Source: a virus (lineage: Duplodnaviria > Caudoviricetes). From it: a stretch of DNA of 64,000 nt. The notes beneath the pieces were generated by a model. It was not told where the DNA came from, ran no database searches, and saw only the letters and a list, made by a program, of their open reading frames with translations. The stretch lies in the IMG/VR virus record IMGVR_UViG_3300032038_000073, positions 1,950 through 65,949 of that record; one strand, written 5' to 3'. Every line of letters starts with the position of its first letter. The first letter of the stretch is position 1. Position numbers and translations under genes: made by a program. Positions 12,217 to 64,000 of the stretch are shown in pieces.

Positions 12217-12681
12217 ATGAAGAAGATATTTGCATCTATTATTACTGCTGTGGCGATTGCCGTTATCGTTCTTAGCTTGACTGGTTGCTCTGAGGCTGAG
12301 CGGGTTTCATACAACGTCAGTAAGGAGGCTGACAACTTCAACGTAACCCGGAGACTGACAGTTATCAACTCTCGCTCAGATAAGTGCGTCCTACAGATGA
12401 CCGGCAAAATGTCCATTGAGGATGTAACTGACGGCATAGCTGTCCTGGTAGAACTTGACCGGGAGAAGGGTATCTATCAGAAGCACTACATCTATTTGAA
12501 TGAGTGGACGATGTATACCGTTGAAGATGTTTCTGGCGTGGGCGTATCAAAGTATGCTTATGAGTTGGAGTTCATGCCTCAGACGTTAGTACCGGTTCGC
12601 CTGACTGCCAATGAGATCAAACAGGACTTGGACGAATTTGCGAAGGACATAGTTGAAGAGACAGGAGACGAGGAGGACTGA
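12217..12681 (+). CDS. phage lipoprotein
   Basis: Signal peptide with lipobox LTGC; SEAERVSYNVSKEADNFNVTRRLTVIN. Confidence 0.75.
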   Translation: MKKIFASIITAVAIAVIVLSLTGCSEAERVSYNVSKEADNFNVTRRLTVINSRSDKCVLQMTGKMSIEDVTDGIAVLVELDREKGIYQKHYIYLNEWTMYTVEDVSGVGVSKYAYELEFMPQTLVPVRLTANEIKQDLDEFAKDIVEETGDEED

Positions 12682-13935: not shown

Positions 13936-14178
13936 TCAAAACCCTCCTTCCTCGGACCAGTCCTTATCTTCCGGGCTGACCCATGTATAGTTGTTGACCG
14001 CATCTTCGAGACAGGTCGGATAATCAGACAGGGGAGACGCAAGGATAAGCACTTCCTGATTCTCTTCGCCCATATTCCTGACCAGGATGGCGGTATCCAT
14101 GACCTGATTAACGAAATGGACAAGGGTCAGATTTCCACTACGATCCAATACTTCATGGTTTTCAATCATATCAAACAT
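13936..14178 (-). CDS. small acidic protein
   Basis: 80 aa, AGGAG RBS. Confidence 0.6.
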   Translation of the reverse strand: MFDMIENHEVLDRSGNLTLVHFVNQVMDTAILVRNMGEENQEVLILASPLSDYPTCLEDAVNNYTWVSPEDKDWSEEGGF

Positions 14179-14179
14179 T

Positions 14180-14377
14180 TCAAACTCCTTTCAAATCTTT
14201 TATCAGCCGGTCAGTTTCTTCGCTTGTCAATACACCGGCATCTGTTAAGCCGAGAAGGTATCCCACAAGTGCGAAACGTGCGCTTTGCACAAGTTCGGGA
14301 TTATCGCTGAAAAGCATTTCCCGGAAATAGCGGATTGCCTGTCGGCTTTTGTCGGGCAACTTGGTAATTTCTGGCAC
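14180..14377 (-). CDS. small hypothetical protein
   Basis: GAAAGGAGG RBS plus GTG at 14377. Confidence 0.5.
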   Translation of the reverse strand: MPEITKLPDKSRQAIRYFREMLFSDNPELVQSARFALVGYLLGLTDAGVLTSEETDRLIKDLKGV

Positions 14378-14452
14378 CGGGGACCTCCTTTCTGGCAAAA
14401 AAGTGGCAAAACACTGGCAAAACACTGGCATTTACTCAAGGCTACGCAAGGA

Positions 14453-14704
14453 TTACTCAAGACCGTAGTAGTCTTTCAGGCTCCCAATAGCCATATCGTA
14501 AGTCCTGGCGTTGGCAAGTCTCCGGGCAGTCATAAATGTCTTACTGTCCAGGAACGCTCTGAGGAACGCTACACTGGCTCTTCCAGTCTCAACGTACCAG
14601 ACAAGGGGAGCAACGATTACATCCGCTCTATCGCATCCGTACCGCTCCATGAGGTACTTGCGGACCTGCCATACCTTGTTGTCAATGGATGTTCTGCTTA
14701 CCAT
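14453..14704 (-). CDS. small hypothetical protein
   Basis: GGAGG RBS plus ATG; LVWYVETGRAS. Confidence 0.55.
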   Translation of the reverse strand: MVSRTSIDNKVWQVRKYLMERYGCDRADVIVAPLVWYVETGRASVAFLRAFLDSKTFMTARRLANARTYDMAIGSLKDYYGLE

Positions 14705-14731
14705 GCCTTCCTCCAATCTGCCACCGGGGGC

Positions 14732-14959
14732 TTAGTTCTCGTCAGGTTCCTGCGGAATTGTCTGTCCTCCGCTGGCTATGTACTGCGTGACCGCCTCCGT
14801 CACGAACTTCGTAAGGCTCATGTCCTTCTTCTTGGCTTCGGCCTTCCATTCGGCCTTAATGCCTTTTGACAGCATGAGCGTCAGCTTTTCGTAGTTTTTA
14901 TCATTGTACTCCCGGACTTTCTGCATGTATTCGGGAGTGATTTTTCTTTTTGTTGGCAT
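14732..14959 (-). CDS. ribbon-helix-helix regulator (Aca-like)
   Basis: YNDKNYEKLTLMLSKGIKAEWKAEAKKKDMSLTKFVTEAV. Confidence 0.75.
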   Translation of the reverse strand: MPTKRKITPEYMQKVREYNDKNYEKLTLMLSKGIKAEWKAEAKKKDMSLTKFVTEAVTQYIASGGQTIPQEPDEN

Positions 14960-15024
14960 TTTCACACCTCCTTCTTATCGTCCGTATTCCATCTTTTTCG
15001 TGAGGCCAGGGAAATGTTCTGGCT

Positions 15025-15255
15025 TTAGTCCTCTTCCAGTTCGGCAGGGGTATCTACTTCCCGGAAATTGAACTCGCTGACCAGAAGTTCCTCAAAGTCA
15101 GGATCAAGTTCAAGATACCGGGCAATGAACTCGTCATTCGTGCAAGGGGCCAGTTCTGCGTGAACCGTTTCTCAAATATCATCGTCCATGTAGGTTGCGA
15201 TTGCATCCATGATGTTGTTGCTGTTGTTGAGGGCCTTTCCGTGTACTGTAAACAT
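15025..15255 (-). pseudogene. AcrIC5-like small acidic gene with in-frame TGA
   Basis: Manual translation MFTVHGKALNNSNNIMDAIATYMDDDI*ETVHAELAPCTNDEFIARYLELDPDFEELLVSEF...; AAAGGAG RBS; TGA at 15172-15174. Confidence 0.6.
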
Positions 15256-15314
15256 TTGCTTTCTCCTTTCATGCCCTCGTTACCTCCGGGGCGGGCTGTT
15301 CTTTAACTGTCTTC

Positions 15315-15343
15315 ATTGTAGCAAACAATCACGGCATTGTCAA
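15315..15343 (-). promoter_or_regulatory. sigma-A promoter
   Basis: TTGACA-17 bp-TACAAT. Confidence 0.85.
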
Positions 15344-15521
15344 GACATAAATTACGTGATTATCAAATTTCTTTTGCGTCCCTGTAGTGGCGTAGGAGCG
15401 GCTTTATCTTTTAGCCTACCAACTATGCCACCGGGGACTTCAAACTGGATTGCATGGCTTCTCAGAGAGCCACAGGGGGCTTTTAGCTTTAAGCTAACTA
15501 TCTGAAATTGGCACGAGGGGC

Positions 15522-15848
15522 TTAGCTGTAAAAATCTCTTACCATGTCCAGGAGCCGGGCTTTCTCAGCGTCCGAAAGACTGTATTTGACCGCTGCCTCA
15601 TTGATATAGTTAACTGCTTCATCCGCATCCAAGAACGTGACCACATCGTTTTCCGCCAGTTCGTGAATGGGAGCCAATGATCCATTGTTGCGGACCATGC
15701 AGGCGTTCATGTAGCTATCAAAATCCGGGTATCTTGCGTAGTCCTCCGGGCTTTCGGCTTTGAACTGCTCATAGTCGGCTCTTAACTGATCCAGGGAAAC
15801 GGCTTCGCCTGCGTTCGTGTCGTAGTACCAGTTATTCCATTTTGCCAT
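15522..15848 (-). CDS. small acidic hypothetical protein
   Basis: 108 aa, AAAGGAG RBS. Confidence 0.6.
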   Translation of the reverse strand: MAKWNNWYYDTNAGEAVSLDQLRADYEQFKAESPEDYARYPDFDSYMNACMVRNNGSLAPIHELAENDVVTFLDADEAVNYINEAAVKYSLSDAEKARLLDMVRDFYS

Positions 15849-15902
15849 AGTGATCTCCTTTCTAAAAATGGCACGAGGGGCTTCAAATTTGGCACCGGGG
15901 GC

Positions 15903-16367
15903 TTAATCTTCCTCAGTTGCCAGGAGGGTCTTTTTGTCAACCCGATAGAACTTGCTATATCCGGCCACTCTGTAATAGTCGCCCATATCCAGGACTTCGG
16001 GCCTCTTTGCCAGGGGGGACTTAGCTTTCTGCGTGAAGACCACATACTCCACATATTCACCAGACGGATAACTTACATTCAGCGTTTCGCCGGTGCAGGC
16101 GTATCCGGGATTCATCTGCTCAAAGCCCTCACGGAATCTTTCATCAAGTTCTCCCACCTCATAGACAGGGAAGGCCGGAACCAGTTCATAATTATCGACT
16201 TCCTTTTGAGCCAGGGGGGACTTATACTCGACCCATGCCCAGGCTTTACGGTTGATTTCAGGGACGAAAACTCTGCCGTGATCGGAAATATCTTCCCAAT
16301 CAGTAGGCTTGCCGGGGAATGTTCCGGGCATAAAGGGACGTTGGGTTAAGTAGTAGCGATATGACAT
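15903..16367 (-). CDS. DarA C-terminal-like domain protein (anti-restriction)
   Basis: YRYYLTQRPFMPGTFP...AWAWVEYKSPLAQKEVDNYELVP. Confidence 0.65.
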   Translation of the reverse strand: MSYRYYLTQRPFMPGTFPGKPTDWEDISDHGRVFVPEINRKAWAWVEYKSPLAQKEVDNYELVPAFPVYEVGELDERFREGFEQMNPGYACTGETLNVSYPSGEYVEYVVFTQKAKSPLAKRPEVLDMGDYYRVAGYSKFYRVDKKTLLATEED

Positions 16368-16426
16368 AATTTTTCTCCTTTCAAAATGGCACAGGGGACT
16401 TGTTTTTGAAAAATGCCAGGGGGGAC

Positions 16427-16612
16427 TTAAATCTCAGCGAAAGAATTCATTTCACTGGCGATGTTTTCCGGGGTATCGGCGTATTTCTGCATCCATGTGG
16501 CGAAGTGCATGGCAAGATAACTCTCAAGGTTTTCAAGGTTGTCGGGATTGGTGGCAAACGCCTTGATTGCGTTGCAGAACGTCTTTGCTTCTTCTTCATA
16601 CGGTCTTTCCAT
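16427..16612 (-). CDS. small hypothetical protein
   Basis: NPDNLENLESYLAMHFATWMQKYADTPE; AAGGAG RBS. Confidence 0.6.
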   Translation of the reverse strand: MERPYEEEAKTFCNAIKAFATNPDNLENLESYLAMHFATWMQKYADTPENIASEMNSFAEI

Positions 16613-16695
16613 TGTATTCTCCTTTTCTGCCACGGTGGGCTTAGTTGATTGTTTTCAGTTTCGATTATGCCAGGGGGGACTCAAACCCTCCGAGA

Positions 16696-16761
16696 ATGCC
16701 GTATAGGGCTCGAACCTATCACAAGGGGCTTCCGCCTTTGCTCTCCCACTGAGAACGGCAC
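16696..16761 (-). ncRNA. degenerate tRNA-like cloverleaf (GAA at anticodon position)
   Basis: GTGCCGT/ACGGCAT acceptor, CTC/GAG D stem, AAAGG-CGGAAGC-CCCTT, ATAGG-TTCGAGC-CCTAT T arm. Confidence 0.6.
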
Positions 16762-16767
16762 TTTTGA

Positions 16768-17064
16768 TTAAAAGCGTATGGCCGGGAGTATGGGCGGGAG
16801 GGTGACTGTATAGACGGTTGTCTCGCCGTTTTTGCCGAATGATCCGGGCATGTCTGCGAATGCGTTGGCGATACTGTCTGCATAGCTTCTCAACCTGTAG
16901 GGCTCATCTACTTTCAGTAGAAAACCCTTTTCTTCATCCGGACGGTCTACTGCCGTACTTCTGCGGTATTTCTTGATGTTCAGATACACAAGGCCGTCTT
17001 TGTACCAGTCTACTGCCTCCGCATGGCATCCGTGCGCCCATGTATCGAAATAGGTTCTTGCCAT
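16768..17064 (-). CDS. hypothetical protein
   Basis: 98 aa, AGGAGGG RBS. Confidence 0.55.
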   Translation of the reverse strand: MARTYFDTWAHGCHAEAVDWYKDGLVYLNIKKYRRSTAVDRPDEEKGFLLKVDEPYRLRSYADSIANAFADMPGSFGKNGETTVYTVTLPPILPAIRF

Positions 17065-17079
17065 AGTTTCATCCCTCCT

Positions 17080-17301
17080 TTACTCAAATACCAAGTTAAC
17101 CAGGTTTACAAGCGTGTCATAGATAGGGGCCTCTACCATTTCTCGCAGGTCCTCCATTACTTTCGCTTTGTTCGTTTCAAGTGCTTTCAGCGTGTACTCC
17201 TCCGGGCTTTCGGGGGAGATAATGCTTTCGAAGTCTCTATAGCCAAAAGGATCGCCCACCTCATAAAAGGTATTGACCAGGTTTGCAATTGCTCTTTTCA
17301 T
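17080..17301 (-). CDS. small acidic protein
   Basis: 73 aa, AGGAGG RBS. Confidence 0.55.
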   Translation of the reverse strand: MKRAIANLVNTFYEVGDPFGYRDFESIISPESPEEYTLKALETNKAKVMEDLREMVEAPIYDTLVNLVNLVFE

Positions 17302-17438
17302 CTGCCGGTCCTCCTTTCCAGGTCCTTGACGATGTTTTCAGCGTGTTCCTTTGTCGGGCTTGCTGCTGTCCAGACTTGGCCGTCTACCATGACCGCCCAA
17401 AAACCAGACGGACACTGAATGACCGTAATTTTTGACAT
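17298..17438 (-). CDS. small protein not in the ORF track
   Basis: TAAGGAG RBS; MSKITVIQCPSGFWAVMVDGQVWTAASPTKEHAENIVKDLERRTGR; ATGA overlap with next gene. Confidence 0.6.
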   Translation of the reverse strand: MSKITVIQCPSGFWAVMVDGQVWTAASPTKEHAENIVKDLERRTGR

Positions 17439-17475
17439 ATGTACTCCTTATTGTGCATGGGTTAATTGTTACGGA

Positions 17476-17535
17476 TAGACCATGGGCGGATTCGGACCGC
17501 CTTTTTCCGGGTCCCCTTTGTTGGGGCATGGCCTA
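17476..17535 (-). ncRNA. tRNA top-half-like element
   Basis: 9-bp TAGGCCATG/CATGGTCTA stem, CCCC/GGGG hairpin, GGCGG-TCCGAAT-CCGCC. Confidence 0.5.
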
Positions 17536-17543
17536 GGGATAAC

Positions 17544-17762
17544 TTATCTGTAGCTTTCCGGGTACGCAATGTAGTTTTCGGCGGCACTAAAATAAACTTC
17601 GCCGGTTTCGTTGCTGACAATTTCCTTTGTGCATGGATCGGAAACTAACAGTGAAAAAATATCTGTTGTGTAGTCGGCGGATGTGCCGTTCTTGAAAGTT
17701 GCGGTGATGCTTTCGGCGGTAGTTGTGCCAAAAATGGAATTGATGAACATATCTCTTGACAT
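17544..17762 (-). CDS. small hypothetical protein
   Basis: 72 aa, AAAGGAG RBS; EIVSNETGEVYF. Confidence 0.55.
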   Translation of the reverse strand: MSRDMFINSIFGTTTAESITATFKNGTSADYTTDIFSLLVSDPCTKEIVSNETGEVYFSAAENYIAYPESYR

Positions 17763-17806
17763 TTTTTGTTGCTCCTTTCGTTTGCCGTTTCTGCCTTATT
17801 GACGAT

Positions 17807-17850
17807 ACCCTCCGCAGGTGTCGGGCCTGCCTTGCGTCCTCCGGGAGGGT
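17807..17850 (-). ncRNA. tRNA top-half-like element
   Basis: 7-bp ACCCTCC/GGAGGGT stem stacked on GCAGG-CCCGACA-CCTGC. Confidence 0.45.
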
Positions 17851-17858
17851 CAAAAGAT

Positions 17859-18257
17859 TTAAAACTCGGTGATTGTAACATGGCCTCCGGTCCTGGTGGC
17901 CTTTGCTGTATAAAGCAGGCTCCCGACTCTTGCGCCGTATGCGTTCATGTCGTTGTCGTATTCGCCATATTTGGCAAATATTTTTAATTGGTTTGCGCTG
18001 ATCGTATGCTGTCCGGCTCCGAAAGACTGAACAAATTTAATCATCCAGTCGTTTCTTACTGCCTTAAATCTAAGTGCGGAGTACTCCGACCATAATTTAT
18101 TTGTAATCGCAAAATATTCATCGAAAATCCTGTCTTCTTCGGACTTGTATTCTTCGTCTGTCAAGCTGTCCGGGATAGCATCAAGGGCCTTTTCTCTTTC
18201 GGCTCCCTTTGCTTTGATCGTGGCAAGTAGGGTCTTGCGCTTGTCTGCTTTTGTCAT
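17859..18257 (-). CDS. hypothetical protein, first gene of leftward early operon
   Basis: 132 aa, AAAGGAG RBS. Confidence 0.6.
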   Translation of the reverse strand: MTKADKRKTLLATIKAKGAEREKALDAIPDSLTDEEYKSEEDRIFDEYFAITNKLWSEYSALRFKAVRNDWMIKFVQSFGAGQHTISANQLKIFAKYGEYDNDMNAYGARVGSLLYTAKATRTGGHVTITEF

Positions 18258-18307
18258 GCTGTACTCCTTTCCAATACATTGTTTTTGGTGTTCCCTTTGA
18301 TGATTCT

Positions 18308-18336
18308 ATATTATCAAACAATCACGTTATTGTCAA
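18308..18336 (-). promoter_or_regulatory. sigma-A promoter, paralogue of the 15315 promoter
   Basis: TTGACA-17-TAATAT; 21/23 identity with 15322-15344. Confidence 0.75.
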
Positions 18337-18435
18337 GCACAAATTACACTAAATTTAAAAAATTTGTTGTCGGGCTTTGGTGGGCGTGGTATAGTATGGA
18401 GGAAGTCAAAAACAGAAGAATTGGAGGTCTGAAAA

Positions 18436-18645
18436 ATGCTTGTATATAAGTTCGATGTTTTGGAGATGCTTAAAGAAGAGGGCTACAATACTACACGCTT
18501 ACGTCGGGAGAAAATTATATCTGAATCATCTATACAGTATTTAAGGGAGGGAAAACCGATCGGGCCTATTGTTTTAGATACTCTCTGTAGGCTGTTGGAC
18601 ATGCAGCCGGGCAATATATTAAAGTATGTAGAAGATGATAAATAA
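18436..18645 (+). CDS. Cro/C1-type HTH regulator
   Basis: GYNTTRLRREKIISESSIQYLREGK...LCRLLDMQPGNILKY. Confidence 0.85.
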   Translation: MLVYKFDVLEMLKEEGYNTTRLRREKIISESSIQYLREGKPIGPIVLDTLCRLLDMQPGNILKYVEDDK

Positions 18646-19106
18646 TGGTGCTGTGCGTCCCTGGGTGGGGCTGTAAGGGGCTTTTATCCTGGGAGACAAG
18701 GAAACATACATATAATATAGTAGACTCTTCTTAGGGCGTTTTAGGGCTGTCGGCTTTTGTCGGCGGTCCTTTTTTATTCTTCCGGGGAAGTCTGCCGGGA
18801 TCCTGCCGGTGGCGTGGCGTTCTTCCCCTGGGCCGGGTCCAGCTTTTCCGGGCTGATCCATGCCGGGGCCGGGGACGCTGAGACGGTCCGCAGGGGCTTT
18901 CAAAGTCGGATATACATTTATAAAGGCCGGGGGCGTTCCGGGCCGCCTGGGGCTTTCAGGGGCGTTCTATGGCCTTTTGTGCCGGGCTTGCCTGTCTGCC
19001 GGGGGTGTCTGCCTGTCTGATAATGCACAATATATAGTGTACAAATTGCACAAAAATGAGGCCTGTTTTTCTACGTGATTCTATCCGGATAAATACAATA
19101 ACGTTA

Positions 19107-19135
19107 TTGCAAAATGATTAAATATGGTGTAAGAT
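19107..19135 (+). promoter_or_regulatory. sigma-A promoter
   Basis: TTGCAA-17-TAAGAT. Confidence 0.65.
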
Positions 19136-19263
19136 AAAGTTACCTTAAAGAAAGAGGTACGGACCCGGGCGGCATGGGGCGGGGCTGAGATTGAAAAATC
19201 CGGCTCGGTTTCATCCGGGAGAATAACAAACGATCTGATAATAAAAAATGGAGGATATAAAAA

Positions 19264-20475
19264 ATGAGTAACAGTTATTACATTGCCAACCGTGAGACGG
19301 AAAAGCTCGAACTGCATTTCGAGAAAGCTGATTATATCGCACTGAGCGACGATCTGAAAAATGAAGTGAGAAGCAACTTCCTGTGGGGCCGTAATTCCGG
19401 ATGCTGGATTTCCCGTTGCAAGGAGCCCAACCTGGGCTATGCTCGCAGGGTTGCGGAAAAGCTCGGACTGGAAAACGCAGGCGCAACCGGTGACCGGCTG
19501 ACGATGGCTGAAAAGATCGAGGTCAAGGTCGCCAAGGCTGAAAGAAGGGCGGAACGCTACGACAACCGGGCAGATGCAGCAGAGGCAAGAGCGGAAGCAT
19601 TACAGAAGCCAATTAATGACATGCACGGCGACATTGCATTTTTCACTCAGCCCAACATCAACACTTCTTCCGGCCGGGCTTTCACTCGCAGGCGTGAAAA
19701 GATGTGGGCCTCATTTGAAAAGGGGTTTGAGGAGTTTCACAAGAGCGCATATTACAAGGACAGAGCAAACGCTGCAAGAGTGACCGCCGCCCAGGGCAAC
19801 TTAAAAGACCCGGCATTTCTTGAAAGAAGAATCAAAGAGCGGGAATCTTCAATCAAAAAGGTTCAGAAGAACGCCGAAGACGCCGAAAAGATACTTGAAA
19901 GAGTGGTTGCCGGTGAAACGGTTAAAACTTGGGGCGGGGAGCAGATCACTACAGAAAAAGCGGAGGAGAGCTTTAATTACTATCTGGATCGTGTTGAAGT
20001 CCTTTTGGATGAACTCGGATTTTATCAGGATTGTTTGGAGGCGGTCGGCGGCATCAAGTTCTCTAAGGCGACTGTAAAAGTTGGCTATATTGTCAAGGTT
20101 GCCCGCTGGGGCGTGTGCGAAGTCCTTTCAACCGGTCCAAAGAATTGCGTAATTAAAGTTGCATCTGCCCAGGGTTTCCCGCTTACTGTCTCCTATGCAG
20201 AGATAACCGAGATCGTAAAGGCAGAAGAGAAAAAAGCGGCGGCGCATCCGTTCAAGGTCGGGGAAAAGTTCACATATACTCGTTGGAACTCTGAAAAGCA
20301 CGACAGCGAAGAAGTAACAGCCGAGATTATCAAAGCAACTGATAAAACTGTCACACTGAAAGTTGGAGACGAAAAGCCGTTTAGCAAAAAGCCGACAGTC
20401 TCAAAATTCAACGGAGATTGGGTGCTTGCCCTTTCTGATTGGCGAGGTGGCATCTTCTACAAGAAAGCGGAATAA
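19264..20475 (+). CDS. DUF3560-like protein
   Basis: AERRAERYDNRA...IAFFTQPNINTSSGRAFTRRREK...EEFHKSAYYKDRA. Confidence 0.7.
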   Translation: MSNSYYIANRETEKLELHFEKADYIALSDDLKNEVRSNFLWGRNSGCWISRCKEPNLGYARRVAEKLGLENAGATGDRLTMAEKIEVKVAKAERRAERYDNRADAAEARAEALQKPINDMHGDIAFFTQPNINTSSGRAFTRRREKMWASFEKGFEEFHKSAYYKDRANAARVTAAQGNLKDPAFLERRIKERESSIKKVQKNAEDAEKILERVVAGETVKTWGGEQITTEKAEESFNYYLDRVEVLLDELGFYQDCLEAVGGIKFSKATVKVGYIVKVARWGVCEVLSTGPKNCVIKVASAQGFPLTVSYAEITEIVKAEEKKAAAHPFKVGEKFTYTRWNSEKHDSEEVTAEIIKATDKTVTLKVGDEKPFSKKPTVSKFNGDWVLALSDWRGGIFYKKAE

Positions 20476-24911: not shown

Positions 24912-24987
24912 TGCAGGATAGAGAAGTTCGGTCAATCTCGCAAGGCTCATAACCTTGAAATCGGGGGTTCAAATCCCTCTCCTGCGA
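24912..24987 (+). tRNA. tRNA-Met (CAT), initiator-like
   Basis: TGCAGGA/TCCTGCG acceptor, CAAGG-CTCATAA-CCTTG, GGGGG-TTCAAAT-CCCTC; no encoded CCA. Confidence 0.9.
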
Positions 24988-25102
24988 CTGCCGGGAACCA
25001 CCGTAAACCGGTTACGATGGCGAGACGGCAACGGTTGTGTGAAGCGCAACACATAACCAACTGCCTGTGACGAAAAATAGCGAGTGAACCGCTATAGCAG
25101 GC

Positions 25103-35702: not shown

Positions 35703-36173
35703 ATGCTTGCAGGTATTTCTACCGTAGGTATTCTTTTTGGTTATGGTACTGGTGCGGAAAAGCCCGCCAAGTTTACCCTTCTGAACCGTATCAACCAGAT
35801 TGGCAGCATCGCTCTCAATCAGGAGAACATTGACGCTTCTGCTCTGGAAGATGCTATCGCCCGGTACGTTGCTGGTCGTGCTGATATTGGTGGTGGCTCC
35901 GTCAACGTCACTATCAACATGACTAACGAGACTGTTGCCGAGTGGGAAGCTCTTATCACTGCTTACCAGGCCCTTACTGGCACTAACAGGATGTACTTTG
36001 AGGTCTATTCTCCGAAGCTGACCAAGGCGTTCTTCTTCGTGGCTCAGCCCCCGGCAAAACTGCCTATGCCTGAAATGGGCCAAAACGGTCTGCTTACCGC
36101 TGAGATTGCTCTGACCATCGAGGAGTATATCGGCCTTGACGCTGCCGTTGCGCCGACTGTTGATGGGAAGTAA
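35703..36173 (+). CDS. major tail protein
   Basis: MLAGISTVGILFGYG...IDASALED...RAD.GG. Confidence 0.85.
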   Translation: MLAGISTVGILFGYGTGAEKPAKFTLLNRINQIGSIALNQENIDASALEDAIARYVAGRADIGGGSVNVTINMTNETVAEWEALITAYQALTGTNRMYFEVYSPKLTKAFFFVAQPPAKLPMPEMGQNGLLTAEIALTIEEYIGLDAAVAPTVDGK

Positions 36174-63335: not shown

Positions 63336-64000
63336 ATGAGGTATGGACTTCCGTACAAGGGGAGCAAGAACCAGATTGCCGAGTGGGTGATCGAAAATCT
63401 GCCAAGTGGCGGTACGTTTGTTGACATGTTCTGCGGTGGGTGTGCCGTCACACATGCTGCGTTGCTGTCTGGACGTTGGGATCGCTACATTATCAACGAC
63501 ATTGACGGACGGATGCCGAAACTCTTTCTTGACGCCATTCACGGCAAATATACGCCTGAAAACTGTTCTGAGTGGATAAGTCGTGAGGAGTTTCACCGGT
63601 GCAAGGATGAAGATGCCTTTGTAGCAATCTGCTGGTCGTTTGCCAATAACGGCGTTGATTACATTTATGGAAAGAATGTCGAGCCGTTCAAAGAAGCACT
63701 TCATTACGCTTGTTTTGTGAACGATACCTCGAAACTTGAGGCGCTTGGTTTCCGTGTGGAGAAAAGTGACAAACCATCGGTGGCTGAGCGAATTGCTGAT
63801 TATCGAAATCAGCTCAACGCAAACACACTTCGCACGGATTTAAACGGCGCAGAAAGGTTAGAAGCTGTTGAACGCCTACAGAGCCTTGCGAGCCTACAGA
63901 GCCTTGCGAGCCTACAGAGCCTTGCGAGCCTACAGAGCCTTGCGAGCCTACAGAGCCTTGCGAGCCTACAGAGCCTTGCGAGCCTACAGAGCCTTGCGAG
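63336..64000 (+). CDS. Dam/D12-class adenine methyltransferase (truncated by window end)
   Basis: LPYKGSKNQIA...VDMFCGGCAV...IINDI. Confidence 0.88.
   Translation, partial: MRYGLPYKGSKNQIAEWVIENLPSGGTFVDMFCGGCAVTHAALLSGRWDRYIINDIDGRMPKLFLDAIHGKYTPENCSEWISREEFHRCKDEDAFVAICWSFANNGVDYIYGKNVEPFKEALHYACFVNDTSKLEALGFRVEKSDKPSVAERIADYRNQLNANTLRTDLNGAERLEAVERLQSLASLQSLASLQSLASLQSLASLQSLASLQSLASLQSLA
63876..64000 (+). repeat. 18-bp in-frame tandem repeat (LQSLAS), at least 6.9 copies
   Basis: CTACAGAGCCTTGCGAGC repeated to the window edge. Confidence 0.97.

Follow-up and report, generated by a model that had tools for sequence, protein, structure and literature searches.

To our knowledge, words that mark gene junctions in a single orientation have been described since the L5 stoperators, the Start-Associated Sequences (SAS) of Cluster K and the PeSLs of T4-type phages, and only the stoperators have a known reader. 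In integrons, attC sites abut the cassette ORFs, and arrays of partial-tRNA repeats beside a tRNA, as in genomic islands and tycheposons, are typically left by serial insertions at tRNA genes. The stoperators of Cluster A mycobacteriophages are asymmetric words of 13-15 bp in short intergenic spaces, with an orientation locked to transcription and with lineage-specific spellings, and they occupy more than 20 sites genome-wide (PMC9283540, PMC6550527). They are bound by the immunity repressor, which leads to an orientation-dependent block of elongation (PMC9283540), and the same word doubles as the operator of the early promoter. The SAS of Cluster K mycobacteriophages are short asymmetric words of 13 bp, present in 11-19 copies in one orientation, that contain the Shine-Dalgarno (SD) sequence and lie 3-7 bp from the start codon (PMC3203893). 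In T4-type phages, PeSL (promoter-early stem-loop) cassettes, each a sigma-70 promoter plus a terminator stem-loop, form junction repeats that flank small non-essential genes in hyperplastic regions (PMC2839356, PMC4122927). The junction word described here is a further member of this class of phage repeats, which has been recognised for some time but is little understood.

The window, i.e. the whole stretch of DNA that was analysed, comprises 64 kb of the virus record IMGVR_UViG_3300032038_000073. In it, a 15-base word, spelled AAGYCCCCNSTGSCA on the minus (transcribed) strand, is present in 13 strong copies and one weak copy, all in a single orientation and all inside 14372-16682. When the pattern RRGYCCNNNSTGSCW was searched, 15 matches were found in the window, compared with 0.45 +/- 0.77 in 100 shuffles (maximum 4); 13 of these fell within 14372-16682, every one on the minus strand, and the remaining two, at 35968 and 59490, had poor weight matrix scores. 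By the same matrix, true copies scored 19-31 and background 13 or less; the 14th copy (15918-15932), which carries one mismatch (A at position 4), scored 8.8. A scan of the whole 65,949-bp virus record recovered no further true copy, the phage's own att region contains none, and a blastn comparison of the block with 50,697 phage records gave no match. An initial annotation of this DNA had reported 14 co-oriented copies in 2.3 kb, irregularly spaced and not CRISPR, and had suggested a genome-wide motif scan; the counts given above bear this out, and the scan found no real copy outside 14372-16682. The motif that it described was also real, but it had been written for the other strand; since it is the minus strand that encodes the genes, the biologically meaningful form is its reverse complement. 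The copies are co-oriented with transcription. Start-to-start distances are 20-49 nt among close copies and reach about 700 nt overall. A CRISPR array was rejected on the basis of the 15-nt repeat, the lack of a regular repeat-spacer period (20 to about 700 nt) and the genes between copies. Helical phasing of the tandem copies was rejected as well, the distances of 20-22, 27, 33, 37, 40-43 and 49 nt being inconsistent with it.

The genes of the block form one promoterless polycistron that is read leftward, and every feature given here belongs to the minus strand. Copy 1 (16668-16682), which heads the array, makes up a T-arm-like hairpin together with 16683-16690 and is its 3' side, and copy 2 (16628-16642) ends 1 nt ahead of the SD purine run of gene A (16427-16612; 61 aa, no family). 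Copy 3 (16414-16428) is fused to the TAA of gene A, and copy 4 (16387-16401) precedes the SD of gene B (15903-16367; 154 aa), which encodes an N-terminal DarA_C domain (aa 2-65; PF18789, E 5.5e-16) followed by a swappable C-terminal module. Three copies lie in frame within gene B, namely copies 5 (16209-16223) and 6 (16008-16022), both translated as KSPLA, and the weak copy 7 (15918-15932), translated as KTLLA. Copy 8 (15890-15904) is fused to the TAA of gene B. Copy 9 (15869-15883), ahead of the SD of gene C (15522-15848; 108 aa, no family), is identical at 15 of 15 bases to copy 10 (15509-15523), which is fused to the TAA of gene C. Copy 11 (15468-15482) is an 'empty' unit without a gene, and copy 12 (15426-15440) forms the 5' arm of a long hairpin (15373-15444; z -2.7, with a counterpart of z -4.2 in the relative L010) that closes the upstream array. 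Further downstream, copy 13 (14719-14733) is fused to the TAA of gene E (14732-14959), which encodes an Arc/RHH-like protein (phrog_582), and lies 4 nt ahead of the SD of gene F (14453-14704). Copy 14 (14372-14386), on the far side of gene F, includes the GTG start and part of the SD of gene G (14180-14377), whose 65-aa product is a helical bundle for which the fold search gave no match. For gene C nine relatives were found, and for gene B four.

Copies thus occur fused to a TAA, ahead of an SD, as empty tandems, or within the DarA_C gene in its reading frame. At each of the four gene ends in the array, the TAA is fused to the word; the four TAA overlaps listed in the initial annotation (14732, 15522, 15903 and 16427) were all correct, with the AA of the TAA forming word bases 1-2, and so was its count of three copies inside the DarA_C-like gene, the third being the weak copy 7. 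Five copies end 1-7 nt upstream of an SD, with the start codon 13-23 nt downstream of the word, and tandems of 2-5 copies also occur. When 132 DarA_C relatives were compared at internal copy 5, only P51 and L52 were conserved, and the residues that complete the word, S50 and A53, were rare; by this comparison, coding does not explain the copy. The description of the whole block as 'anti-defence' is based only on one DarA_C domain and an Acr/Aca-like pair; most of the genes have no family. Family scans of the block and its neighbours found no nuclease or RNA-binding protein, and the neighbouring small proteins are also without family.

In these respects the word resembles the SAS. Both are confined to a region of non-structural genes near translation starts, sometimes with the upstream stop codon inside the word, and both are absent from the host and from other phages (PMC3203893). 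The word here is 15 rather than 13 bp long, and it lies upstream of a separate SD instead of containing one. Moreover, unlike the SAS, it is also found in tandem, in empty units and inside a gene, and in a different host group.

Several other functions for the word were rejected. For a sigma-54 promoter on the plus strand, the spacing between its GG and GC elements is 2 nt too short; TGCCAG is found in many copies, and transcription from promoters of this kind would run antisense to the genes. Read on the minus strand as a promoter of sigma-70 or phage type, it lacks a -10 element at constant spacing, and any transcription start would lie downstream of the SD and the start codon. Sequestration of the SD by the C-run of the word also fails, as the two are not complementary.

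The word is retained in the equivalent block of three related contigs, and a 57.9-kb relative carries 9 copies within 2.3 kb and one stray match elsewhere. Among the 35 copies collected from three phages, the bases at positions 3, 5, 6, 11, 12 and 14 never varied, position 4 was always Y, positions 10 and 13 were always S, and position 9 was free. Such a pattern looks like that of a recognition word and not of recent duplicates. A contig with unrelated genes, L017, carries 5+2 copies at two seams; L123, a relative of one of the L017 genes, lacks the word. More distantly related phages that share the neighbouring DUF3560 gene have their own, different one-way junction words with a matching stop/SD layout; the counts on the two strands are 26 versus 1 in one genome and 10 versus 0 in another. 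Scans for tandem words yielded 48 loci in metagenome contigs and 42 in genome contigs. Apart from L017, L034 and L058, these had 1-2 copies only or consisted of tandem repeats within GC-rich coding sequence, as in L033, L062, L080 and L089, whose periods are 18-44 nt and which are probably proline-rich repeats; L013/L058 is a different tandem, 'gccattaca'.

Our preferred explanation, which is put forward tentatively and with less than even confidence, is that the word acts as a junction mark, or 'punctuation', that is specific to the lineage and is carried in the mRNA of a leftward operon of small accessory genes, where it would be read by a putative sequence-specific factor. The host is a cattle-gut bacterium, probably of the Bacillota, and a phage or host factor would read the word on the transcript. 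With copies placed after stop codons and before ribosome-binding sites, such a factor could adjust the translation, processing or stability of each gene separately. Ordinary recombination between copies would in turn delete, insert or swap single-gene cassettes, and the block may be hyperplastic because the same one-way word at every seam lets such recombination act. The initial annotation had offered a binding site for a phage protein or an mRNA motif as alternatives; the position-specific conservation, the strict polarity and the lineage-specific words all fit a reader acting in trans, and they are compatible with either the DNA or the RNA level. The use of the word in RNA folds at the ends of the array and its absence from both promoters of the block speak for the mRNA reading. 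Several points count against it. Lone copies show neither RNA structure nor an Rfam match, and no nuclease or RNA-binding protein was found. The coincidence of seams with the word is confounded with gene boundaries, a gene-precise deletion (16770 to 17061) having occurred at a seam without the word, and some breakpoints lie away from any copy. The three in-frame copies would expose the mRNA of gene B to the same factor, and the one-way intergenic layout, as far as the comparison goes, is shared with the DNA-acting stoperators and so would not be specific to an RNA-level element.

The foremost alternative is that the copies are DNA docking sites for a phage repressor or regulator that, like the stoperator-bound repressor, blocks or modulates elongation by RNA polymerase, for example in prophage silencing. 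The word is asymmetric, 15 bp long and in one orientation, it lies in short intergenic spaces and is tolerated inside a gene, and in these features it matches the published description (PMC9283540). Co-evolution of the word with a phage protein would account for the lineage-specific words of relatives. In addition, a promoter-like site (TTGACT-17-TATATT) of the relative L118 has a copy of that phage's own word in its spacer, and five copies sit 8 nt ahead of TGTTACA. Here, however, no copy serves as an operator: the two sigma-70-like promoters of the block, at 18308-18336 and at 15315-15343 (TTGACA-17-TACAAT, minus strand), the latter driving the downstream Acr/Aca-like unit, both lack the word, whereas the stoperator word doubles as one. 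Instead of being spread across early and late operons, the 14 sites are confined to 2.3 kb of 66 kb, and the tandem spacing is irregular. No candidate for a cognate repressor was identified; when gene G was considered as the reader, an Atlas search and a fold search gave nothing above noise and no match to a DNA-binding fold. We regard a DNA roadblock of this type as possible but rather unlikely, and slightly favour action at the RNA level.

A second alternative is that the copies are passive relics. They would derive from the 3' half of the tRNA-like element that heads the array, displaced or copied from it and spread by repeated insertion, duplication and short-patch gene conversion, and would now be functionless. 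The word does resemble tRNA positions 57-71 (R57, A58, Y60 and C61, followed by the 3' strands of the T-stem and the acceptor stem), and the phage's own tRNA-Met has a similar general spelling in that region. Moreover, the array opens with a degenerate tRNA-like cloverleaf (16696-16761, minus strand), just upstream, which agrees with the word at 13 of 15 positions in its 3' half, and with a T-arm that uses the word. As in partial-tRNA arrays, a tRNA-like head is thus followed by co-oriented tRNA 3' parts that separate cargo modules. In the window, the cloverleaf fold (16694-16763) had a z of -1.25, and the T-arm-like fold (16666-16700) has a mismatch and a z of +1.2; in L010, two word copies make up a 58-nt cloverleaf (1139-1196, z -2.8), and L104 has a perfect T-arm (z -2.9). 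An acceptor stem plus T-arm with a 7-nt T-loop was seen only at array heads, and only at the head in L010 can a TGCCA-type and a TGGCA-type copy pair to give an acceptor stem. Lone copies and junctions have no RNA structure (fold z -0.9 to +2.1) and lack the 5' arm expected of an att core. Rfam gave no match for the word and was negative over 14000-19300 even at E 10; ARAGORN and Rfam called a single tRNA in the window (24912-24988) and did not call the array head, which, in contrast to the heads of partial-tRNA arrays, is not a functional tRNA. The modules here are also single genes of 60-150 aa without an integrase. The copies further differ from partial-tRNA repeats in their position-specific conservation and their fixed relation to the SD. 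Neutral decay should be random, yet six positions are invariant and three are limited to a base class. L017 has copies of the word but no tRNA-like head in its 2.4 kb, and the words of relatives that are not tRNA-like share the same layout. Taken together, these data make functionless relics improbable.

A third alternative, also raised in the initial annotation, is a dedicated, integron-like platform in which a recombinase cuts at the word and single-gene cassettes move as circles. Gain, loss and replacement of cassettes do coincide with the word. Gene C, which is absent from L009 and L010, is bounded by identical 15-mers, and at the empty site in L010 a single copy remains between these same flanks (aatttg / atttcag). 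L009 has an additional 52-aa gene, gene X, between copies 3 and 4. Copy 13 is the exact boundary at which gene F is replaced, by an unrelated gene in L010 and also in a cattle-gut contig. Gene B exists in a short and a long form that part at about copy 5, and the join of the short form to gene C is among the indel events bounded by the word. Independent samples from four cattle-gut studies gave contigs that break at word edges, with joints or loose ends at 14719, 14735, 15883, 15889 and 16207, and contigs from three cattle-gut runs end within copy 11, at 15476. As in integrons, each cassette holds a single gene without a promoter, all cassettes point the same way, and a repeat abuts every stop codon. 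Several indel boundaries are 0-4 nt from word edges; others lie a few to about 23 nt away. Twelve independent events were counted in 14300-16800; about 5 of them have an end that is no more than 4 nt from the edge of a copy, compared with about 19% expected (binomial p about 0.06, a hand estimate that is confounded with gene boundaries). Integrons, however, have an IntI-type integrase and attC sites that are imperfect palindromes of 55-140 bp; here, no recombinase was found among 20 ORFs in and around the block (Pfam and PHROGs), and the 15-nt word is unstructured, without an inverted-repeat or hairpin partner. The sole recombination-related match near the block is an RDF-like gene on the opposite strand (12217-12681). 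Other events are imprecise, in that the deletion of gene X left remnants in a 12-nt spacer and the short form of gene B ends at a non-word position of the long form. A gene-precise deletion of the same kind occurred at a seam without the word (16770/17061), and the att region lacks the word. Because there is no integrase nearby and no attC-like hairpin, some breakpoints are imprecise, and a word-less seam shows the same kind of deletion, a dedicated site-specific system is not supported, and we consider it very unlikely. With PeSL cassettes, the block shares small genes in a hyperplastic region flanked by junction repeats, with the indels and replacements of close relatives bounded by those repeats, although word-less seams behave alike; it differs in that the word has neither promoter hexamers nor terminator-like hairpins and the genes form a single promoterless polycistron. 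Under the preferred mRNA reading, cassette shuffling is probably a by-product of the repeated word.

Finally, the word could be the 3' half (T-loop, T-stem and acceptor strand) of a tRNA-like module, and the block a cassette platform carried by the phage that opens with tRNA-like folds and has machinery reading tRNA shape or tRNA-gene ends at each seam, either RNase P/Z-type punctuation or an in-trans tRNA-site recombinase; we hold this to be highly doubtful, but if true it would amount to an integron-like collector of accessory genes in which tRNA-half words replace attC.

What is new here is a compact case of a one-way junction word in a gut phage of Bacillota type, with the word at the seams of single-gene cassettes, a DarA_C gene and an Acr/Aca-like pair among them. 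Genes are swapped at these seams in natural variants that come from four cattle studies, and the likeness to half of a tRNA is an unusual feature of the word. If a reader were found, it would explain both the expression and the exchange of accessory, possibly counter-defence, gene sets, and it would help in recognising cassette boundaries in uncultured phages.

The virus record is complete (65,949 bp, with direct terminal repeats), and the window covers nearly all of it; at the window's right end (~63874-63990), at least 6 units of 18 nt are repeated in tandem. The nearest matches of the large terminase were gut Bacillota-type phages, and cattle gut was the main origin of the DNA runs sharing part of the block, a leftward operon of small accessory genes. 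Because the genes at ~13.0-18.3 kb run leftward, the 15-bp motif reported in the initial annotation should be taken as its reverse complement, AAGYCCCCNSTGSCA (here, the word). The pattern RRGYCCNNNSTGSCW was matched 15 times in the window, versus 0.45 expected. As reported, the copies cluster in one orientation: 13 of the 15 matches, all on the minus strand, fell within 14372-16682, and the fourteenth reported copy (15918) carried one mismatch. The same block, with 9-11 copies, was found in three IMG/VR contigs (L009/L012, L010/L011/L034, and L104), and in a 57.9-kb relative the copies were likewise limited to 2.3 kb. When a weight matrix was trained on 35 copies from three phages, true copies scored 19-31 and the rest of the window at most 13. 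Across these 35 copies, positions 3, 5, 6, 11, 12, and 14 were invariant, only pyrimidines occurred at position 4 and only G or C at positions 10 and 13, and position 9 was unconstrained. Judged from the aligned copies, this pattern appears to be the signature of a recognition word and not of recent duplicates.

Placement relative to genes was then considered, with copies numbered 1-14 from 16682 down to 14372. Four copies do overlap stop codons as claimed, the two A's at their start being part of the TAA of genes A (16427-16612), B (15903-16367), C (15522-15848), and E (14732-14959). Five copies ended 1-7 nt ahead of the next Shine-Dalgarno (SD) purine run and were followed by start codons 13-23 nt downstream; gene G (14180-14377) had its GTG start inside one copy, and three copies between gene C and the internal promoter belonged to units that hold no gene. 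The three copies noted inside the DarA_C gene (gene B) were also found, in a common reading frame (KSPLA, KSPLA, and KTLLA). The first of these is no by-product of coding: among 132 DarA_C family representatives, conservation was limited to Pro51 and Leu52, and Ser50 and Ala53, which complete the word, were rare. Neither of the sigma-70-like promoters of the block (18308-18336 and 15315-15343, minus strand) contains the word, and the rightward operons of the phage, which consist of overlapping genes, lack it as well. The spacers of the two promoters are almost identical (..CGTGATTGTTTG..) and enclosed by a short inverted repeat, and the promoters probably share an operator for a regulator distinct from the reader of the junction word. 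No family could be recognized for the small proteins of the block, and a fold search with gene G gave no match. Between gene F (14453-14704) and the start of gene G, four TGCCA pentamers with an exact 11-nt period (14387-14430, minus strand) resemble an array of phased DNA sites for a binding protein; a fifth lies within copy 14, and the array is kept in L009 and gone in L010 along with gene F. The small gene following the internal promoter (start 15256) has TGA at codon 28 (15173-15175, minus strand), as against CGA in L009 and CGG in L010, and is thus truncated in the window phage and intact (76 aa) in the relatives.

A word scan also located L017, a 2.4-kb contig with neither nucleotide nor translated similarity to the window. 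One of its seams held five copies and another held two, the latter degenerate, all laid out as in the window with stop overlap and SD proximity. Two word-less L017 seams (2140-2001 and 1693-1599, minus strand) have hairpins with the arms AGCCCC.../...GGGGACTT, corresponding to the word's first half and its complement, a hint that such hairpins and the word may be interchangeable junction elements. Scans for tandem copies in 241 million metagenome records and 185,579 species genomes yielded nothing further real; it is a rare word, bound to its lineage. Phages sharing only the neighboring DUF3560 gene (45-58% identity) lacked the window's word, and two of them had words of their own, AAATCTGY in L118 (26 copies on one strand, 1 on the other) and ACGCCGCS..AWCATTT in L107 (10 and 0). 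Each was limited to one block (~11-23 kb of genome G002 and 0.4-5.4 kb of genome G003, respectively), with many copies adjoining stop codons and preceding an SD. Of the L118 copies, five precede TGTTACA by 8 nt and one falls within a promoter-like spacer; the end of the L107 word, CATTTCAAA, resembles the A/T-rich tail following the window's word.

With regard to RNA structure, an Rfam search gave no match, and lone-copy junctions were no more structured than shuffles. The word corresponds to tRNA positions 57-71, and folds using it occur at array ends. One is a degenerate cloverleaf (16696-16761), and another is a T-arm in which copy 1 takes part, perfect in both L104 and L010 but with a mismatch in the window and in L009. 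L010 has a 58-nt mini-cloverleaf (1139-1196; z -2.8), and copy 12 supplies the 5' arm of a long hairpin that closes the array (window, z -2.7; L010, z -4.2). The mini-cloverleaf has a 7-bp acceptor stem, two small hairpins, and a T-arm with the loop UUCAAGU, its acceptor strands being the 3' ends of two successive copies. A tRNA-like mimic was also seen near 17476-17535, at an upstream seam of this operon. Given the fixed relation to stops and SD sites, the use in RNA folds, and the absence from promoters, we slightly and tentatively favor the reading that the word acts on the transcript. Ranked second, and rather doubtful, is a stoperator-like roadblock on DNA: an identical layout has been described for L5-type sites and each lineage has a word of its own, but this block holds no operator copy and the distribution is local. 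That the copies are functionless relics of tRNA-like 3' halves is unlikely, as the conservation pattern speaks against neutral decay, and some other explanation is about equally improbable.

The proposal that breakpoints in related phages fall on the word held in part. Gene C (108 aa) has identical 15-mers on both sides in the window; at this site L010 retains one copy with unchanged outer flanks, and L009 lacks one additional unit. L009 carries an extra 52-aa gene (X) between copies 3 and 4, and in L010 an unrelated gene stands in place of gene F, the swap being bounded exactly by the 3' end of copy 13 and the SD beside copy 14. In the downstream unit of both relatives, variant copies (C at position 1) bracket two more cassettes. 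Logan contigs from four cattle-gut studies had joints or free ends at 14719, 14735, 15883, 15889, and 16207, all 0-2 nt off word edges and including a new direct join of short gene B to gene C; pieces bearing gene C stopped at 15476, within a word copy, in three runs. Gene B itself is modular: besides the long form there is a short one that consists of DarA_C alone and stops at a word copy, and further versions have different C-terminal modules. The 65-aa DarA_C domain is found alone (L010), with the 88-aa tail of gene B, or with an unrelated tail (protein P0014), and the 88-aa tail also lies behind a different N-terminus (P0013). Against the proposal, the gene at 16768-17064 was deleted with equal gene precision at a word-less seam, the remnant of the X deletion was located in a spacer, and several breakpoints lay 7-23 nt from the nearest copy. 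By a rough count, confounded with gene boundaries, a word edge was touched in ~5 of 12 independent events versus ~19% expected; the excess is suggestive. These mixed breakpoints, together with the lack of a recombinase and of a hairpin, make a dedicated integron-like recombination system the least probable reading.

Compared with published definitions, the word misses one or more of the defining features in each of four known kinds: the SD within the word, 3-7 bp from the start (SAS); an operator copy in the promoter and genome-wide spread (stoperators); a promoter and terminator per unit (PeSLs); and an integrase with a hairpin (integron attC). It is best filed with the general kind of one-way junction repeats of phage accessory regions. 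The observations are consistent with a junction element that a sequence-specific factor recognizes, cassette shuffling being a consequence of the presence of the same one-way word at every seam.
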